From IMG/VR virus record IMGVR_UViG_3300043446_000899, positions 9,159 to 73,158 of that record: 64,000 nucleotides of DNA; one strand, 5' to 3'. The stretch is from a virus. Under the pieces are notes generated by a model. That model had not been told where the DNA came from. It searched no databases and worked only from the letters and a program-made list of their open reading frames with translations. Positions 7,598 to 58,724 of this stretch are shown here, one piece after another (within the stretch, counting starts at the first letter, position 1; each line of letters starts with the position of its first letter). Position numbers and translations under genes: made by a program.

Positions 7598-10500
7598 TTA
7601 GATGTTTTTAAGAGCTTTTACAATAGCACCGTTTCTTTTTTCTTCCTTTCCTTCATTCTTAAACTTCTTTTCATAAGCATTAGTAATTGCCTTTGCTTTT
7701 TCATATTCAGACATGTTACCTAATGAGTTGGCACCTACCGTAGGATTGTTAAAGAAGTAAGGATTGTTTGCATTGTAAACAGTACCTGCCTCATTGAATC
7801 TGTATCCATATAAGTTCTCCATAACATTCAAGTTTCTGTTCTCAAGCTTGTTCTGTGCAATCTTGCTAGCAATAGAACCAAGAGCTTCAATAGCTTGTTC
7901 TTTAGTCTTAGACTTAGCTGTTGCTTGTCTAACTTGTTGAGTATCAAGGATTCCTATGTTCTTTAATACAGCATCATTAATTGCCGCTCTATTAGCTTGA
8001 TAAACTTGAGCTTTATTAGCTTGGTTGATTCTCATTTGCTCACCCAACACTTTGTTCTTAAGATCAGCAGCTTGACTCATAATGTAAGCTTGAGAAGCAG
8101 GGTCATTACCAGCAGCTCTAATAGCAGCTCTAGATTGAGAGTCAATAGCATTTACTTGATCTTGTAATGAAATGTCATAAGGATTATCCAACATTGGCTG
8201 ATATGTTTGAGCATATACAGGCTCTTGTTGGTTACTACCTAATGCATACATCTCACCCATAAGTTGATTTGGATCTAATGTAGACTTAGTGTGAGGTCTG
8301 AAATAATCACCTAATCCAGAAGCCAATGTTAAAGCAGCTGTATTCCAATCAAACTTACCTTTACCTTTTTTACCTTTAGGTCCTTTGATATCACCTGGCA
8401 TATCTTCAATGCTAGGAGGATGATCAACAGTTTTTCTCTTTGCAGAAACTGTAACATCTGGTAATGAGTTACCTGTATAACCTGGGCTATATGGAACAAT
8501 GTTATTGTTAGTAGCATTATTTGGATTTAAGAAAGGAGCTTTTTTAAGGAAGTCTAATACTCCAGAAGCAGGTGCAGGGGCATAAGGGATAGTAACATTA
8601 TTGTTAACTCCACCCTTACTAAAATTAGAATATGCATTATATAGAGCACTATTTTGTTTAGCACTTCCTACATAGTCTTTAGCTTTCTTAACGATTCCTA
8701 AACTTTCTGCAAGAGCAGCTCTTGATGACTTATCTGTCTTTTGGTTATTCTTTGCTAGTAAATCTACAATAGATCCACTCTGAGCTTTTGACAACTTCTT
8801 ACCATCTCTACCAATTAATGGGTCTTTGATAGGCTTGATTTGTCCTTTGGATAAACCATCACTCTCTACACCAAACTCATTGGCTGTATCAAGGATTGCA
8901 TTCTGTACCATTGCAGCTGCTTGCTTCTTACCAGCAATATCTTTTAATTTCATATTAGCTCCTAATAGGTTAGCACGGCTAGCATTCATTGCTAATTGAT
9001 CAAATGGATTGTCACTATCAATGCTATTAACCGTTTTAATTGATTTGTCTATAATTCTATTTTGTTTAGCCTCCACCTTGCTAAGATCTGCAATGTAGTG
9101 TTTAAACTTCTTACCTTTAGCTTTGTCATCACCAATCTCTTTAACACCATAGTCAGGAATCATCATGTTACCAAATACTACCAAGTTTCCATCTGGAGAA
9201 CCACCATCTGCTAATTTAACAGCTGGTTCACCACCTTCTACCTCTACACCATTCTCACCATAGCTAATTGGCATACCACCATTGTCATGAGAAGGACCTC
9301 TGAACATTACAGTTTCACCACCTTCTGGTAAGTATGGATTATAAGACATTGTTTCAGCTTTGCCACGGTGAACTTTTAAATCACCACCCATAGCAAATTG
9401 TTCTCTTCCTGTGTACATAGCCTCTGCACTAGGAGGAGTGTATTCTTTTAAATGACCACCAGCACGTAACATATCTGCATCATGAGGAGGCTGCAATAAG
9501 TCTTTTAACTTATGTTCACCAAATGTAGCAATCACCTGTGGCTGCCAATCATTACTTACCCATCCACCATCTTCCATATTGCTAGAATATGTAGAATGTA
9601 TATTCTGAGCACCTTGTGCCCAAGCAGCTCTTTCTGTATTCTTCTTTGTTGTATCTTGGAAACCTGCAAGCTTATTAGCATCATCAGCACCACCTAATAG
9701 GTTACCAGCAACACCACCTAAGAATCCACCAATAGTACTACCTAATGGACCAAATGCACTACCAATTGCAGAACCTACACCTTTACCAATAGATGCTTGA
9801 CCTGAATCTTGAAAGTAATCACCAAACTCAGCTGTAGGTAAGTTACCACCGTAAGCATATTGTTTAACATCACCATTGCTTAATGGTGTATATCCAAGGT
9901 TTGAATATATATCTAAAGGGCTATTATATGAATTCTGAATTTCTGTTTTATTACCTCCAACAGTTGTACCATTCTGAGCAAGGTAGTTTGTACCTCCACC
10001 TTGAGGATTACCTAACTGTCCTGGTTGTACCAACGTATCTTCTGGTCTTACGTATCTATTTTTTTGTAATTGAGGTTGTGACTCAGCAGCCTGTGCAGTA
10101 AGTCCTGATATCTGAGCAGATTGATCTGCTTTCTTAATAGCTGCTTTTTGTTCTTTGATTTGACCAATACCTTGTAAGATTTGAGGAGCAGCATTTAAAA
10201 CTCCTAAACCTGCAGCTTTGCCAGCAGCACCTAATCCTTCAGATGTACCTAAAGTTTTTAATCCTCCAACAAGACCCTTACCTTTAAACATATTTTGACT
10301 AGCATCCATGATACCTTTAGACGTACCTTTTCCACCAAACATGTCAGCAAGTCCACTACCAAGACCACCTTGTTTTTGAAAACCTGTTCCAATAACATTA
10401 CCTAGTTTTGTAAAATCAAAACCATTCTGAGCCATTGGTAAACTATAACCATATTCACCTGTATCACCTTCAGTAAAATGAGTAGCAACTTCAGATAACA

Positions 10501-41653: not shown

Positions 41654-41996
41654 ATGTAGTTCTTGGTTTAAGTTGGTTTATTTGCACTATTGTCTTTTCT
41701 AATGTGACAATAGAAGACTTTCTCTTTTGTTCAGACGTATTAACATCATTTATAATACGTTCCATTGCAGCTTTCTTAGCTTGTAGCTTATCTATTTTCT
41801 TTCCAGCCTTCTTTAGGTTGAAGAAGAGCTTTCCAAATCCAGAAATTTCTATGCTGTTATTTAAGTCCATTGCCTCATTGGCAGATTGGAACTGATGATT
41901 TACCACCGTCTCAATTACTTTCTCAGAAACCATCATCTTAACAGCTAGTGTCCTGACTAGGTAATCCTTCACTGACATTGAGATTGGCTTATCCAT
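41643..41996 (-). CDS. hypothetical basic protein (117 aa)
   Basis: Lys-rich ORF. Confidence 0.4.
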   Translation of the reverse strand: MDKPISMSVKDYLVRTLAVKMMVSEKVIETVVNHQFQSANEAMDLNNSIEISGFGKLFFNLKKAGKKIDKLQAKKAAMERIINDVNTSEQKRKSSIVTLEKTIVQINQLKPRTTYED

Positions 41997-47337: not shown

Positions 47338-47755
47338 GGGGGTGTATTGGATTTGATCCACATGAGATGGGTAGTATCACATGCAAGCCTTGGAACAGGT
47401 AAACAAGTTCTAAACAATAACCGTAAAGAGTCAATCTGAGCGTGTTGCAGAAGGAGCTAGCATCATTGCTATGGCCTTCGCTTCTGAGGTAGCAGTAGCT
47501 GCCTAAGGCAACTGGGTGGTAACAACCTGGAAACAGAAAGTTACAAGAGTTTTCTCTGTAGTCATATAAACAGAGTGGTGGTAGAAAGCAGACCCTGCGA
47601 TCCCATTACGGTGCAAATACTTGTCTTAACAGACGGATGGAGAAACAGAAGGATAAAAGTTACTAACCACACCCTTCAGTATTAGTACTAAGCATGTAAG
47701 AACGGTATTACGTATACTTGTGGAGACAGGGGTTCAACTCCCCTCACCTCCACCA
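47338..47755 (+). ncRNA. ssrA: tmRNA (ssrA-like), phage-encoded; tag reading frame ~47447-47506 ending ...ASEVAVAA-stop
   Basis: 5' GGGGGUG-UAUU-GGAUUUGAUCC (cf. E. coli GGGGCUG-AUUCU-GGAUUCGAC). 3' GGGGUUCAACUCCCC-U-CACCUCC-ACCA with an encoded CCA. A 7-bp acceptor stem with one G.U pair. ~418 nt ORF-free gap between protein genes. Internal frame GCA GAA GGA ... GUA GCU GCC UAA. Confidence 0.55.
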
Positions 47756-47782: not shown

Positions 47783-48094
47783 ATGGCAAAAAGTAAACTT
47801 CCAGCACTTAAAGATTTAAGTGGCTATTTCTTTATGGCAATCCAAGGTGAAAACATAGAAATCATAATGCATGATAATACACCTAGAAACGCAGCAATTG
47901 GTGCAGCATTGGCTACAGTAATGCAAGATGATGATAAGTTTTTTGATCTAATGAGTGCTGCATTATTAACAGTTATTGAAAGAAAAGAAAAAGATTCTAA
48001 TTGGGAAAGAGTAAAATTTTCTCAAAAAGAGAAATCTATTTCTAAAAAGAGCAATATAGTGCCTAAGAAAACAGCATCTAAGCCTAAGAAATAA
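47783..48094 (+). CDS. hypothetical protein with Lys-rich C-terminus (103 aa)
   Basis: ORF. Confidence 0.45.
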   Translation: MAKSKLPALKDLSGYFFMAIQGENIEIIMHDNTPRNAAIGAALATVMQDDDKFFDLMSAALLTVIERKEKDSNWERVKFSQKEKSISKKSNIVPKKTASKPKK

Positions 48095-48111: not shown

Positions 48112-48717
48112 GTGAAATATATTTCATATATTTGTAGCATGAATCAATATTTAATATATGGACTTAGATGTCCCAAAACAGATGACTACAAATATATAGG
48201 TAAAAGTAGTTCAGGATTAGAAAGAGCCAAAGCTCATTTAACGTATTCACATAATGAATCAGTGAATCATTGGGTAGCTGAGTTAAGAGAGCAAGGTTTT
48301 TGTCCTTTAATAGATGTACTTGAAGAGTGTTTAGAAGAAGATTTGCAGATAAAAGAGCACTTCTGGATACAATATTATACAGCTAGAGGATGTAAGCTAA
48401 TGAATTCTATATTCTATAGAGGTGCAGCGATAGAAAAACTTGAACAACAAGTTGCTGAAGCTCAGAAAGAATTAGATGCAACATTAAATAAAGTGCTTGA
48501 CACTATTAATGAACTACGCACTATTAATGGCTTTATCAAACATATAAGAAAGACAAGAGGCTTAACACAGCAAGATTTATCAGAGATGGCTGGTATTACA
48601 TCAAGAACATTAACTGATATTGAGCTAGGAAAAGGCAATCCTTCTTATGCTACTATTGAGAAGCTATTAGATATATTGGGATATAAATTAACACCAACAT
48701 TAAAAAACTCAGTATAA
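48112..48717 (+). CDS. GIY-YIG nuclease domain fused to an XRE-type HTH (homing-endonuclease-like or regulator)
   Basis: YLIYGLRCPKTDDYKYIGKSS...RAKAH matches the GIY-x10-YIG-...R...H pattern. C-terminal LTQQDLSEMAGITSRTLTDIELGKGNPSYATIEKLLDILG matches an XRE HTH. Confidence 0.55.
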   Translation: MKYISYICSMNQYLIYGLRCPKTDDYKYIGKSSSGLERAKAHLTYSHNESVNHWVAELREQGFCPLIDVLEECLEEDLQIKEHFWIQYYTARGCKLMNSIFYRGAAIEKLEQQVAEAQKELDATLNKVLDTINELRTINGFIKHIRKTRGLTQQDLSEMAGITSRTLTDIELGKGNPSYATIEKLLDILGYKLTPTLKNSV

Positions 48718-48772
48718 ATACTTAATGATACATTATTGTATTTAAGTAATTTTGTACAAAAACAAATAACCT

Positions 48773-49012
48773 ATGAAAACAGCAATGCAAGAATTGATAG
48801 AAGATTTGTCAAATAATATGGTTATATCAATATTTGAAAGACTTGAAAGGGAAGGAATGTTTATTAAAGCACTTGAAAAAGAAAAAGAGCAGATAATAAA
48901 TGCTTATGAAGATGGATATGAGGCTTGTGATATGGATGAAGTTATGGAAGTAAATAAAAAGCTAACAAGCGGAGATTTATATTACAATATGAATTATAAC
49001 CAAAACAAATAA
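48773..49012 (+). CDS. small protein, paralogue A (79 aa, MKTAMQELIE...NQNK)
   Basis: N-terminus and the EKEKEQI core are shared with the next ORF. Confidence 0.5.
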   Translation: MKTAMQELIEDLSNNMVISIFERLEREGMFIKALEKEKEQIINAYEDGYEACDMDEVMEVNKKLTSGDLYYNMNYNQNK

Positions 49013-49015
49013 CCT

Positions 49016-49228
49016 ATGAAAACAGCAATGCAAGAACTAATTGAGTTATTAGAACTTAATACAACAAACGAGCCTTTACCACATTTGATTGATGTTATTA
49101 AAGAGGTTTATATTGAAAAAGAAAAAGAGCAGATACAAGAATGGTATGCAAAAGGTTGGGAAGAAGCTACAAAAATTGGTATTGAAGAATCACATAAATA
49201 CCAAGATTTAATTAACCAAAACAAATAA
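49016..49228 (+). CDS. small protein, paralogue B (70 aa, MKTAMQELIE...NQNK)
   Basis: Paralogous to the ORF at 48773..49012. Confidence 0.5.
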   Translation: MKTAMQELIELLELNTTNEPLPHLIDVIKEVYIEKEKEQIQEWYAKGWEEATKIGIEESHKYQDLINQNK

Positions 49229-49231
49229 CCT

Positions 49232-49387
49232 ATGAAATGTTATGTAGTAGTATCTTGCAGTATAAATGAAGGATATTATTTTAATAATTCTTATGTCTTT
49301 AAAAACAAAATGGATGCTGAAAAGTATATTGAACAATTAGACAGTGAAGATACTTTTGATATAGTAGAATTAAATTTTATTGATTAA
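49232..49387 (+). CDS. small ORF (51 aa) preceded by the same junction repeat; not in the track
   Basis: MKCYVVVSCSINEGYYFNNSYVFKNKMDAEKYIEQLDSEDTFDIVELNFID. Confidence 0.35.
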   Translation: MKCYVVVSCSINEGYYFNNSYVFKNKMDAEKYIEQLDSEDTFDIVELNFID

Positions 49388-49400
49388 AAACAAATAACCT

Positions 49401-49619
49401 ATGAAATGGGAAATAACAAATAATAGACCAAACCTTGGTGATGTTAGATTCAAAACTAGATTTGCATTCCTTCCAACACGTGTTCTTAGCAAGTTAACAA
49501 TGACTGATCATTGGATATGGTTAGAATTATATGTTGCTGAGCAAGTGTACTCTTCATGTAATGATGGATGGGACTATTGGGAAGAGTGGAAAACTGTAGC
49601 TAAAACAATACACATATGA
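49401..49619 (+). CDS. hypothetical protein (72 aa)
   Basis: ORF with the junction repeat at its start. Confidence 0.45.
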   Translation: MKWEITNNRPNLGDVRFKTRFAFLPTRVLSKLTMTDHWIWLELYVAEQVYSSCNDGWDYWEEWKTVAKTIHI

Positions 49620-50009: not shown

Positions 50010-51962
50010 ATGAATATACTCATCTATGACATAGAAACCATGCAGGAGCTGTTTCTAGTTTGTATATATAATCCTGAGACACAGCAATGGCATGAATTCC
50101 AGGTGAGTAAGAATACAAACCAGATTGATGCATTTGTTAGGTTTACAGAAGATTACAAAGACTTCTATTGGGTAGGTTATAACAATCTACGCTTTGACAG
50201 TCAAGTAGTTGAGTGGATCATACGCACTCATCAAGATTGGCATGAATTAGGTGCATTAGAAGTAACTGCATTAATAGCTCAGAAAGCTGCAGATGTTATA
50301 CATGATGCTAACTATGATGTATTCCCTGAATATAGAGAGGAATGGTTACACAACAAACAGATAGATTTATTCAGAGTGAACCACTATGATAACAAGAATC
50401 GTAGAGTGAGCCTGAAGAGACTAGAGTTTGAGATGGACCTAGAGAACATAGAAGAGATGCCTATACATCACACCAAGACAAACATGACAGATGAAGAAAT
50501 TCAGCTGACTATTGAGTATTGTCGTAATGATATATATGCAACCTATGAGTTCTACAAAGTAACAACAGGTGATACAGATCATCCATTGTACAAGGGCAAT
50601 AATCAAATAGAGCTCAGACAAGATATTGAAGAAGAGTTTGGTATACCATGTCTTAACTATTCTGATAGTAAGATTGGTGACGAGATGATTAAGAAATATT
50701 ATTGTCAAGAGAAAGGTATACAATATGGTGATCTACCAAAGAAAGGATATTTTCGTAAGGAAGTGAAGGCCAAGAATTGTATAGCTGATTATGTAGCATT
50801 CCAGACACCAGAGCTGCAACAGTTCTTAAAACATGTACAAAAGCAAGTATTTACACTCACTGATGATTTTAAAGAGTCATTAGAATTCTATGATAATGTA
50901 TATACGTTTGCCAAGGGTGGTTTACATACAGAAAACAAACCTAAAATATTTGAAGCTGATGAAGAAACTCTTATTGTGGATTGGGATGTCTCCTCTTATT
51001 ATCCTGCTATTATTATTAACAACAATCGTTACCCTCAGCATTTGGGCCGTGAGTTTCTTAAGGGCTACAAGCAGATGTTTGAGAAAAGATTGGAACTTAA
51101 GCCTCTGGCTAAGAAAGATAAAAAGATTAAAGGTATTGTTGGTGCTCTCAAGCTTGCTGTTAATAGTGTGTACGGTAAATCTAGTGATATGCAGTCATGG
51201 ATCTATGATAGACAACTTACTATGTTTACTACTATCACTGGCGAGCTTAGCTTGCTTATGCTTATTGAAGCTTATGAACTAGCTAGTATACATGTTATAT
51301 CTGCAAATACAGACGGTGTAACTATCTCTGTAAAGCTTACGCATGTAGATAAGATGCATGAGATTAACAAATGGTGGATGGACATCACACAGTATGAACT
51401 AGAACGCACTGACTATTCTAAGATTATCTTCAGCACAGTTAATGACTATTTAGCAATTAAAACAGATGGAGAAATTAAAAAGAAAGGTGATTTTCTCACG
51501 GATTTTGAGCTGCATAAAAATAAGTCTGCTCGTATTGTTCCTATTGCTCTTGATAGATTTTATACAGAAGGTATACCTATTGATGAAACTATACGCAATC
51601 ATAAAAACATTTATGATTTCTGTCTAAGACAGAAGGCTAGTAAAGACTTTCATTATGAAGGTGTAGCTGGTACTAAGAGAACAGTGTACAATAAGCTTAT
51701 TCGTTATTATGTATCCAAAACAGGTGAGAAATTACTAAAAGTAAAGAATCCTGAATGTACTTCTAATGCTGCTGACGTATCTCAAGTGGAAGCAGGTGAA
51801 TGGGTGATGCATGTATGTAATCATCTAACACCAGATCATCCTCTAGATAACATTAACCACGCTTATTATATAGAGCGTGCTGAACGCATAGTTAGTAAGA
51901 TACAGTTTGAAGGTAAGAAACGTAAAATTATTGTTAATCCTAATCAAATGAGTTTATTCTAA
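50010..51962 (+). CDS. family B DNA polymerase with 3'-5' exonuclease (650 aa)
   Basis: ExoI IYDIET, ExoII YNNLRFDSQVV, ExoIII YCRNDIYATYEFY, motif A DWDVSSYYPA, motif B KLAVNSVYGKS, motif C variant ISANTDGVT. Confidence 0.75.
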   Translation: MNILIYDIETMQELFLVCIYNPETQQWHEFQVSKNTNQIDAFVRFTEDYKDFYWVGYNNLRFDSQVVEWIIRTHQDWHELGALEVTALIAQKAADVIHDANYDVFPEYREEWLHNKQIDLFRVNHYDNKNRRVSLKRLEFEMDLENIEEMPIHHTKTNMTDEEIQLTIEYCRNDIYATYEFYKVTTGDTDHPLYKGNNQIELRQDIEEEFGIPCLNYSDSKIGDEMIKKYYCQEKGIQYGDLPKKGYFRKEVKAKNCIADYVAFQTPELQQFLKHVQKQVFTLTDDFKESLEFYDNVYTFAKGGLHTENKPKIFEADEETLIVDWDVSSYYPAIIINNNRYPQHLGREFLKGYKQMFEKRLELKPLAKKDKKIKGIVGALKLAVNSVYGKSSDMQSWIYDRQLTMFTTITGELSLLMLIEAYELASIHVISANTDGVTISVKLTHVDKMHEINKWWMDITQYELERTDYSKIIFSTVNDYLAIKTDGEIKKKGDFLTDFELHKNKSARIVPIALDRFYTEGIPIDETIRNHKNIYDFCLRQKASKDFHYEGVAGTKRTVYNKLIRYYVSKTGEKLLKVKNPECTSNAADVSQVEAGEWVMHVCNHLTPDHPLDNINHAYYIERAERIVSKIQFEGKKRKIIVNPNQMSLF

Positions 51963-58052: not shown

Positions 58053-58724
58053 ATGGCAAGTAAATTAATTGGGATTGTGGGTCCCACTGGAACAGGAAAG
58101 TCCACATCAATCAAACATTTAGATCCAAAAGAGACGTACATCATTAACGTTGCTAAGAAAGAATTACCTTTCAAAGGAGCAGAGAAGTTGTACAATTTGG
58201 AGAACAAGAATTACAAAGAGGTAGATGATGCTGTAGAAATCACAAAGTTATTACGAGTGATTTCAGAGAAAGCTCCTCACATCAAGAACATCATTATTGA
58301 AGACTCTAATTACATTATGGGTTTCAATATTGTATCTAAAGCTGACCAAGTTGGTTTTACTAAGTTTAGCTTAATGGCTAAGGATATGGTAGAACTATTC
58401 AGAGAAGCTCGTAAGTTACGTGATGACTTGAAGATATTCTATTTTACACACCCAGAGACTATTGAAGATTCTGGTGAGATTATAGGATATAAGATTAAAA
58501 CCGCTGGTAAGTTAATTGACAATCAAATTGTATTAGAGGGATTATTAACAATCTGCTTGTATACACATGTTGATGAGTCAAAAGATGGTACTGCTACCTA
58601 TAGTTTTGTAACTAACAGATTCAAGAAGTACCCAGCTAAGAGTCCAGATGGTATGTTTGCTGACATCAAGATTCCAAATAATTTACAGACAGTAGTAGAC
58701 ACAATTGACGAGTATTATAATTAA
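58053..58724 (+). CDS. P-loop NTPase (223 aa), replication/recombination-associated ATPase
   Basis: Walker A GIVGPTGTGKST, Walker B-like NIIIEDSNY. Confidence 0.55.
   Translation: MASKLIGIVGPTGTGKSTSIKHLDPKETYIINVAKKELPFKGAEKLYNLENKNYKEVDDAVEITKLLRVISEKAPHIKNIIIEDSNYIMGFNIVSKADQVGFTKFSLMAKDMVELFREARKLRDDLKIFYFTHPETIEDSGEIIGYKIKTAGKLIDNQIVLEGLLTICLYTHVDESKDGTATYSFVTNRFKKYPAKSPDGMFADIKIPNNLQTVVDTIDEYYN

Follow-up and report, generated by a model that had tools for sequence, protein, structure and literature searches.

A short sequence repeated before the starts of small accessory genes in a phage lineage, and its possible role as a cassette junction

Background

Phage genomes are mosaics. The present report concerns a short sequence, here called the junction, that stands directly before the start codons of four consecutive small genes (g1 to g4) in 64,000 nucleotides (nt) of viral DNA, and that recurs between small genes in related viral contigs. 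The DNA corresponds to positions 9,159 to 73,158 of the IMG/VR record IMGVR_UViG_3300043446_000899. The whole stretch is called the window and its numbering is used throughout; related loci carry L numbers and gene families f numbers. We favour, with a probability of roughly 0.55, a combined explanation in which the junction is a portable stop/restart signal and at the same time a patch of homology for the shuffling of gene cassettes, in phages of a host that does not depend on Shine-Dalgarno (SD) sequences.

Short sequences with comparable positions have been described in several groups of phages. In T4-type phages the PeSLs (promoter-early stem-loops) have been called 'mobile regulatory cassettes' and credited with modular shuffling (PMC2839356, PMC4122927). 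With a length of about 100 bp they act on transcription: each contains a strong sigma-70-like early promoter (-35, N17, -10) upstream of the ORF and a terminator stem-loop, and the genes between them form separate transcription units. In the Cluster K mycobacteriophages a 13-bp sequence named SAS (Start-Associated Sequence; GGGATAGGAGCCC), which contains the SD core AGGAG, is found 3-7 bp from start codons in 11-19 copies per genome (PMC3203893). A role in translation initiation was proposed for SAS but its function is unproven; half of the copies carry an inverted-repeat element, ESAS (PMC3203893). For lambdoid phages a model was put forward in which homologous recombination at short 'boundary' or 'linker' sequences between genes produces the mosaic joints and leaves the genes intact (summarised in PMC3029335). 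Boundary sequences were, however, not found at most of the mosaic boundaries studied, and illegitimate recombination became the favoured model (PMC3029335).

The junction in the window

Four exact copies of the 19-mer AAACAAATAACCTATGAAA stand on the plus strand of the window, at 48760, 49003, 49219 and 49388. The number expected by chance is 0.11, none of 100 shuffled sequences reached four copies, and there is no fifth copy on either strand of the 64 kb even if up to three mismatches are allowed. All four genes have AAACAAATAACCT directly 5' of the start, followed by ATGAAA. An initial annotation, made from the letters of the sequence, had noticed a shared start junction in front of four small open reading frames (ORFs) at 48773, 49016, 49232 and 49401, identical whether it was non-coding or followed a different C-terminus; the ORF listing, the 19-mer scan and the sequence itself bear out both statements. 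Copy 1 (CAAAAACAAATAACCTATGAAA; 48757..48778, plus strand, with the exact 19-mer at 48760-48778) follows non-coding DNA and starts g1, and the ORF listing has no upstream ORF ending in it. Copy 2 (CCAAAACAAATAACCTATGAAA; 49000..49021, plus strand) encodes the C-terminal NQNK of g1 together with its stop codon, a 3-nt spacer and the ATG AAA start of g2, while copy 3 (49216..49237, plus strand) encodes the NQNK end and stop of g2 and the start of g3. Copy 4 (TAAAAACAAATAACCTATGAAA; 49385..49406, plus strand) starts g4; here the stop codon of g3 (TAA, 49385-49387) precedes the TAA of the motif itself.

The anatomy of the junction is simple. Its stop codons cover three frames, with TAA at -19, TAA at -6 and TGA at +1. 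Positions -14 to -11 are filled by AAAA, there is a C at -3 and a T (the first base of the TAA stop) at -6, and G is absent upstream of the ATG. As a result of the arrangement TAA-CCT-ATG, g1, g2 and g3 lie in one reading frame (48773-49387) divided by single TAA codons, so that read-through of TAA would yield a fusion of the three products. This common frame is probably a mere consequence of the motif. The motif is not palindromic and has no stem, and a repeat scan found no inverted repeat involving it. In silico, the mean pairing probability was 0.31 for the junction as compared with 0.50 for its flanks and 0.44 for control gene starts. A search of Rfam gave no family at the junctions, the sole hit being the upstream transfer-messenger RNA (tmRNA) gene, and the motif string did not occur in the literature searched.

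Distribution among related phages

Megablast of the locus against GenBank phages found nothing, and the closest known polymerases are only about 33% identical to the DNA polymerase of the window. In IMG/VR, 317 contigs encode polymerases that are 74-92% identical to it, and the exact 19-mer is present in at least 119 viral contigs. The fetched loci contained 226 copies of a 16-mer core (AAACAAATAACCTATG) in arrays of 2-5 with a spacing of 90-600 nt. The consensus extends beyond the core that was searched for, to about 24 nt, (T)AACCAAAACAAATAACCTATGAAA. A set of 79 loci picked by way of the polymerase only, and thus unbiased for the motif, had 62 junction copies on the transcribed strand and none on the other when up to 5 mismatches in 22 positions were accepted; shuffled sequence gave about one. 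Relatives with a polymerase identity of 76% or less essentially lack the junction.

All copies keep a fixed register with an ATG. Variation is centred on -12 (C/T) and on -5 and -4 (C/A), and the spacer from AAACAAATAA to the ATG measures 1-3 nt. The 206 ORFs starting at the ATG of a junction have a median length of 70 amino acids (aa) and fall into at least 83 unrelated clusters; in two loci the junction-led ORF is the DNA polymerase itself. On the upstream side, the preceding gene stops at -6 (the TAA of the motif) in 127 cases, at -19 (the TAA in upstream TAACC) in 21 and at +1 (the TGA of ATGA) in 16, which means that the extended junction terminates all three frames. The NQNK tail, written in identical codons, ends 89 of 126 upstream genes belonging to 31 unrelated clusters. 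AACCA, the part of the motif from which this tail results, was not forced by the search pattern. Distant members of family f2, to which g1 and g2 belong, end otherwise when they lack the junction, for example in YNETFKKD or YYEETYGK. Because unrelated genes share the NQNK codons and distant f2 genes without the junction have other ends, the junction is a module at the level of nucleotides, and the C-termini of proteins that are not related to each other are overwritten by it.

It might be thought that the junction has no function of its own and consists of nothing but fused ends of f2 genes, spread by duplication, gene conversion or recent exchange and conserved only because the copies are young. 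Family f2 is indeed the commonest neighbour on both sides, being the largest downstream cluster (54/206) and accounting for 41/126 upstream genes; the conserved nucleotide blocks inside f2 genes recombine as well, and the distant f2 members mentioned above show that the family exists without the junction. However, 121 of 213 unique junction contexts (57%) have no f2 neighbour and only four are f2-f2, which argues that the junction is not simply the joint of tandem f2 genes. Moreover, the motif is preserved exactly even between contigs with a polymerase divergence of up to about 23% (protein level), the register with a usable ATG and stop is always kept, the non-transcribed strand is free of copies and the RNA is predicted to be unusually open. 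Passive spread of this kind is quite improbable in our view. Families f2, f14, f17 and f8 occur both with and without the junction.

Cassettes and mosaic boundaries

Gene-order maps of 72 polymerase-anchored loci revealed a conserved backbone, f3-f4-f0-f7/f16-f1, which is followed by the polymerase. Between f1 and the polymerase there is a hyperplastic segment: its content differs in almost every relative, and the junction-led genes are concentrated there. In the window it is bounded on the left by f1 (47783-48094) and on the right by the DNA polymerase (phrog_1252; 50010..51962, plus strand), its conserved anchor. The initial annotation had suspected a diversifying accessory locus and had proposed a comparison across related phages. 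That comparison agrees with the suspicion, since gene content and array size (2-5 copies) vary and the relatives do not carry one stable gene at this place; a stable single gene is what the annotation had named as speaking against its proposal.

The clearest example of a mobile cassette is g3 (51 aa; 49232..49387, plus strand). Between the window, L117, L149 and L056 its sequence agrees to 95-96%, against about 83% or no relationship at all in the flanks. The homology ends at the ATG of the downstream junction, beyond which the four contexts have four unrelated genes, and its upstream end is also at a junction. In the relatives g3 encodes 73 aa. The gene of the window is without the first 22 codons, the ATGAAA of the junction being joined, at AAATGTTATG, to an internal AAATGT, and by this comparison it is an in-frame microhomology deletion that was rescued by the start codon of the junction. 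A second example is a 189-nt insertion in L129 relative to L127 and L128, which is exactly one junction-to-junction unit composed of a junction and the gene f73. The insert is flanked by canonical junctions on both sides, whereas the empty site of L127 and L128 has a single degenerate junction-like sequence, AAACATATTATATG. The cassette g3 in four contexts and this exact indel support the shuffling that had been proposed for the locus.

Homology breakpoints point in the same direction. At least one breakpoint was located within 25 nt of 86% of the junction boundaries; the corresponding shares are 55% for other gene starts and 20% for positions chosen at random. This excess gives modest support, the comparison being confounded by the depth of homologues.

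In its evolutionary behaviour the junction is closest to the PeSLs. In both cases repeated expression signals stand between small non-essential ORFans in hyperplastic regions beside replication genes, and the ORFs between the repeats are inserted, deleted or replaced from one close relative to the next. Exact repeat-to-repeat indels are known for both (L129 here; compare ORF192 of RB49 and phi1, by whose topology the PeSL cassettes were defined), and both belong to phages with an efficient recombination system working on short homologies. The junction has neither a sigma-70 promoter nor a terminator stem-loop; it is about 24 nt long and overlaps the coding end upstream and the start downstream, and any action it has would be on translation within a polycistronic message. 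Deletions and mini-circles arising by recombination of neighbouring PeSLs were demonstrated by experiment (inverse polymerase chain reaction), whereas the junction is known here from comparison of sequences.

The question may be raised whether the junction is itself a promoter for the RNA polymerase of the host or the phage, each cassette being a transcription unit of its own as in the case of the PeSLs. The first junctions of the arrays in L061 and L119 lie within about 25 nt of a hairpin with a T-run, which leaves little room for a separate promoter, and a TAnnTTTG element (48747-48754) precedes copy 1 of the window. But the motif, 13 nt of A/C-rich sequence, abuts the ATG, so that the mRNAs would be leaderless or truncated, and in most copies the coding region upstream reaches into the motif. 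There was no excess of sigma-70-like sequences either (30 found, 29.5 expected from shuffled sequence). TAnnTTTG, the -7 element of Bacteroidota, is weakly enriched in the window; it precedes first junctions in the window and L015 and 3 of 28 first-type copies in all, and was dropped as a candidate. We hold a promoter function to be highly improbable. Between 46000 and 52000 two terminator-like sites were found, 2.3 being expected, and neither is at a junction. The conserved hairpins within about 25 nt of some first junctions (GTAGACAnTTTGTCnAC, or GACACT..AGTGTC with a T-run; L018, L040, L162; L061, L119) look like terminators or operators directly before the array.

Mosaic genes of the f2 family

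The initial annotation had described the products of g1 (79 aa; 48773..49012, plus strand; last four codons and stop inside junction copy 2) and g2 (70 aa; 49016..49228, plus strand) as paralogues that begin with MKTAMQELIE, share EKEKEQI and end in NQNK. This is correct, and EKEKEQI proved to be encoded by a 23-nt exact DNA repeat (TTGAAAAAGAAAAAGAGCAGATA), located at 48873..48895 in g1 and, 100% identical, at 49113..49135 in g2 (both plus strand). Overall the two proteins are 39% identical, the likeness residing mainly in three short conserved blocks. In an alignment of the family, the blocks MKTAMQELIE, EKEKEQ and YYNxTYNQNK flank two hypervariable modules, which are found in varied combinations: in P0007 the N-module of g2 is combined with the C-module of g1, and in P0002 the C-module of g2 follows another N-module. 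The 55 unique f2 genes of the loci comprise 45 N-types and 45 C-types, and five N-types pair with 2-3 different C-types. Across these 55 genes the core nucleotides of the central EKEKEQ linker are conserved. Recombination at conserved linkers thus seems, to judge from these alignments, to act within f2 genes as well as between genes. A four-combination test of module shuffling was negative in this small sample, no pair of N-types sharing two C-types. The duplication that had been suggested for g1 and g2 holds only loosely, the genes being mosaics of shared linkers and unrelated modules.

Among 5.8 billion proteins, 57 relatives of f2 were found at E <= 0.001. The names given to them in their sources are mutually inconsistent and were taken as spurious, and Pfam and PHROGs have no family for the f2 proteins. 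Structure prediction, which had been recommended for the paralogues, yielded a confident helical model: AlphaFold predicts for g2 a short helix and one long helix (residues 22-68) with a pLDDT of 90.6 and a pTM of 0.58. A fold search with this model in PDB and BFVD gave no significant match. Neither the family searches nor the fold search yielded evidence for or against the anti-defence or host-takeover function that the initial annotation had thought plausible for the locus.

Start context and host

To place the junction among the gene starts of the phage, the 25 nt ahead of the start codon were surveyed for 47 long ORFs in the window. Only two of the 47 have an SD-like element; the leaders are A-rich and G-poor, with A at -3 in 33 of 47. 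The junction-led genes are 4 of about 50 genes in the window, and the junction is not the genome-wide start context, an explanation by which the initial annotation would have been overturned: it is a fixed sequence with C at -3, where the genes prefer A.

Leaders of this style have been described in Bacteroidia (Flavobacterium johnsoniae), whose ribosomes ignore SD sequences; features that promote initiation there are A at -3, -6, -12 and -13, an A-tract from -14 to -11 and low structure (PMC6847099). SD-independent initiation regions of this kind and the junction have much in common, namely the lack of an SD, the A-tract from -14 to -11, the scarcity of G, the low structure (for the junction in silico) and the absence of an extra AUG nearby (PMC6847099). 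They differ in that the cellular regions follow degenerate preferences whereas the junction is a fixed 24-mer with C at -3 and T at -6. The initial annotation had offered an initiation or regulatory element as an alternative to shuffling. To this extent it stands, as the anatomy of the junction (register with the ATG, strand specificity, A-tract, low predicted pairing) would fit such an element.

The host is probably a member of the Bacteroidota such as Sediminibacterium. Among named genome records, several copies of the 22-mer are present in one only, a contig of 19 kb that had been binned with a Sediminibacterium metagenome-assembled genome (MAG). The link to Sediminibacterium is a weak one because phage contigs are often mis-binned.

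In anatomy the junction is closest to SAS. Both are short, asymmetric, conserved sequences directly upstream of the starts of a subset of genes, nearly all in one orientation and in a non-structural region; both precede many gene families, of which one and the same may be found with or without the element, prefer ATG and sometimes hold the stop codon of the upstream gene. The sequence and the SD core of SAS are not those of the junction, which has no SD, includes the ATG, provides stops in three frames and rewrites upstream C-termini. In addition, SAS copies are scattered and not in tight arrays, with no link to cassette exchange, while the junction is arrayed and marks the boundaries of indels.

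Another explanation for the identity of the copies is that the junction is the recognition site of a dedicated trans-acting factor. This could be an RNA-binding translational repressor or an endoribonuclease, with the initiation regions of a set of early accessory genes as its target in the manner of T4 RegA and RegB, or a DNA-binding protein at repeated asymmetric sites, for which the stoperators of Cluster A mycobacteriophages may be compared. Copy identity would then reflect the shared regulator, and exchange would be a side effect. The conservation is far tighter than a generic A-rich leader needs and includes C at -10, -3 and -2; the sequence is strand-specific, limited to a subset of non-structural genes, and departs from the optimum of A at -3 and -6, as expected if selection is not on ribosome affinity. 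The authors of the SAS study left the same possibility open for SAS (PMC3203893). Nevertheless, the variable spacer of 1-3 nt between AAACAAATAA and the ATG and the variation at -12, -5 and -4 make the junction looser than a typical operator, it matches no Rfam family, no candidate factor was identified, and the gene of the adjacent helix-turn-helix (HTH) protein is present in 1/60 array-bearing loci. We regard a dedicated factor as rather unlikely.

A combined explanation

How the favoured combination of a stop/restart signal and a homology patch might work can be outlined at two levels. At the mRNA level, the junction would end any upstream gene through its stops in all three frames and would give any downstream gene a fixed ATG AAA start within an initiation region that is open, rich in A and free of G. 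The upstream stop lies 3 nt before the next start, which favours termination-reinitiation, and terminating ribosomes would probably re-initiate directly at TAA-CCT-ATG. At the DNA level, identical junction copies would act as homology patches of about 24 nt, between which small accessory genes could be inserted, deleted and exchanged as promoterless cassettes. The phage's own Sak4-like annealing recombinase is a candidate enzyme and could plausibly carry out this exchange. It is encoded at 58053..58724 (plus strand; phrog_2872, E = 2.9e-51), adjoining helicases and a primase. If this is right, the junction drives initiation or coupling, and crossovers would fall within it and not merely beside it.

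Several observations weigh against this explanation. The truncation of g3 is a microhomology deletion inside a gene and not a junction-by-junction event, and the pattern in L129 fits replacement through flanking homology as well as it fits a crossover from junction to junction. Breakpoints are common at ordinary gene boundaries, with mean counts similar to those at junctions. At the 3' end of the polymerase (..AGTTTATTCTAATG, with stop and start overlapping) at least eight different genes follow without any junction, at about position 7950 of polymerase-anchored loci (for example L124, L133, L161, L180, L182 and L196), so that the junction is not needed for mosaicism. As regards translation, the junction has no A at -3 and -6, both of which are positive determinants in F. 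johnsoniae, and a translational role is suggested by position and composition. The assignment of the host, finally, is derived from the binned MAG contig and the style of the gene starts.

The polymerase boundary also bears on the linker model for lambdoid phages. In contrast to the linkers postulated there, the junction is explicit, abundant and identical over hundreds of joints, and boundaries without it coexist. The junction may best be described as a translation-level, SD-independent cassette junction, and it appears to be an instance of the model of short conserved boundary sequences and not a new category of system.

A bolder version would see in the junction the cis-site of a dedicated cassette system of phages infecting SD-less hosts, a translation-level counterpart of the integron. 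The 24-mer would have its own recognition factor, be it a helper of recombination or a regulator that binds RNA. Termination, re-initiation and co-regulation would come automatically to every ORF that is captured, and the hypervariable two-module f2 proteins would be the main cargo, diversified by recombination at three conserved nucleotide linkers. We consider such a system distinctly unlikely.

Genes of the array and their neighbours

Directly upstream of the array is a gene for a protein of 201 aa (48112..48717, plus strand), whose C-terminal domain was confirmed as an XRE-type HTH. Its N-terminal half contains IYGL..(11)..YIGKS and resembles GIY-YIG by eye; however, Pfam (at E <= 0.1), PHROGs and PDB sequences match the HTH half only, and the label is not claimed. 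The N-terminal half alone has a nucleotide-level match (79% identity) downstream of the polymerase in L183 and L184, at 8043-8416, and at the protein level these two loci match both halves. The gene, or part of it, may be mobile by this comparison. Its occurrence in a single one of the 60 array-bearing loci shows that it is not a general partner of junction arrays. For this reason, and for want of support for GIY-YIG, the protein was rejected both as an operator-binding partner of the junction and as a homing endonuclease.

These data bear on the idea that the junction is the target of a site-specific enzyme that moves the cassettes, be it a recombinase of the integron type with attC-like sites or a homing endonuclease, of which the possible GIY-YIG/HTH neighbour would be an example. 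In integrons the attC sites, which are imperfect palindromes, are recombined by an integrase encoded next to them. Integrons resemble the junction arrays in that small promoterless genes, all with the same direction of reading, alternate with a repeated site, and the recurrence of the GIY-YIG-like half on its own in L183 and L184 could be taken as a further hint. Unlike attC, however, the junction is non-palindromic, has no stem and forms no folded site. Among the early-region proteins scanned, which are a part of the ORFs of the window (itself an incomplete genome), there was no integrase or other recombinase save the Sak4-like annealing protein. With a GIY-YIG domain unsupported and its gene so rare among the arrays, a site-specific enzyme is very unlikely.

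The last gene of the array, g4 (72 aa; 49401..49619, plus strand), belongs to family f17 and has weak matches to PHROG 5613/11031. In many relatives f17 is again found upstream of the polymerase, with the junction in some cases and without it in others.

Between the HTH gene and copy 1 lies an AT-only palindrome, AATACA TTAT TGTATT (48731-48746, plus strand), possibly an operator or a weak hairpin. The corresponding site of L015, where the same HTH gene stands upstream, has a related but non-identical sequence. A full-length tmRNA gene (47338-47755, plus strand; Rfam RF00023, 74 bits, E = 4e-28) lies some 1 kb before the array, with small early ORFs on one side and f1 on the other. The tag predicted by ARAGORN is VKSQSERVAEGASIIAMAFASEVAVAA*.

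The junction is not the only fixed leader. In 12 related loci a second portable leader, AATCAATTAGTTATG, occurs once per locus before at least eight unrelated genes and with differing upstream sequence (L121:1087, L141:2367, L149:1067, L153:1274, L159:2073, L165:513, L168:516, L180:1818 and L181:267). On the minus strand of the window another short leader, AACTACATATG, has four copies, with motif starts at 41661, 35231, 32188 and 23083, and at least three of them stand in front of long ORFs in the leftward arm (ends 41653, 35223 and 32180). It would seem that the use of fixed leaders in this phage is not confined to the array. Two further recurrent 15-mers before ATG were discarded as leaders: CAATTAAAACAGATG is an artefact of an internal ATG of the polymerase gene, and AAGTTTATTCTAATG represents the conserved 3' end of the polymerase.

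Conclusions

An explicit linker of 24 nt is found beside linker-free boundaries in the same genomes, and the two routes to mosaicism can therefore be compared directly. As a natural, portable and SD-independent stop/restart signal, the junction would be a probe for start choice and for the coupling of cistrons in Bacteroidota, and it may be of use as a part for building operons in these bacteria. It also flags hundreds of small accessory genes, among them a hypervariable helical family, as candidates for interaction with the host.

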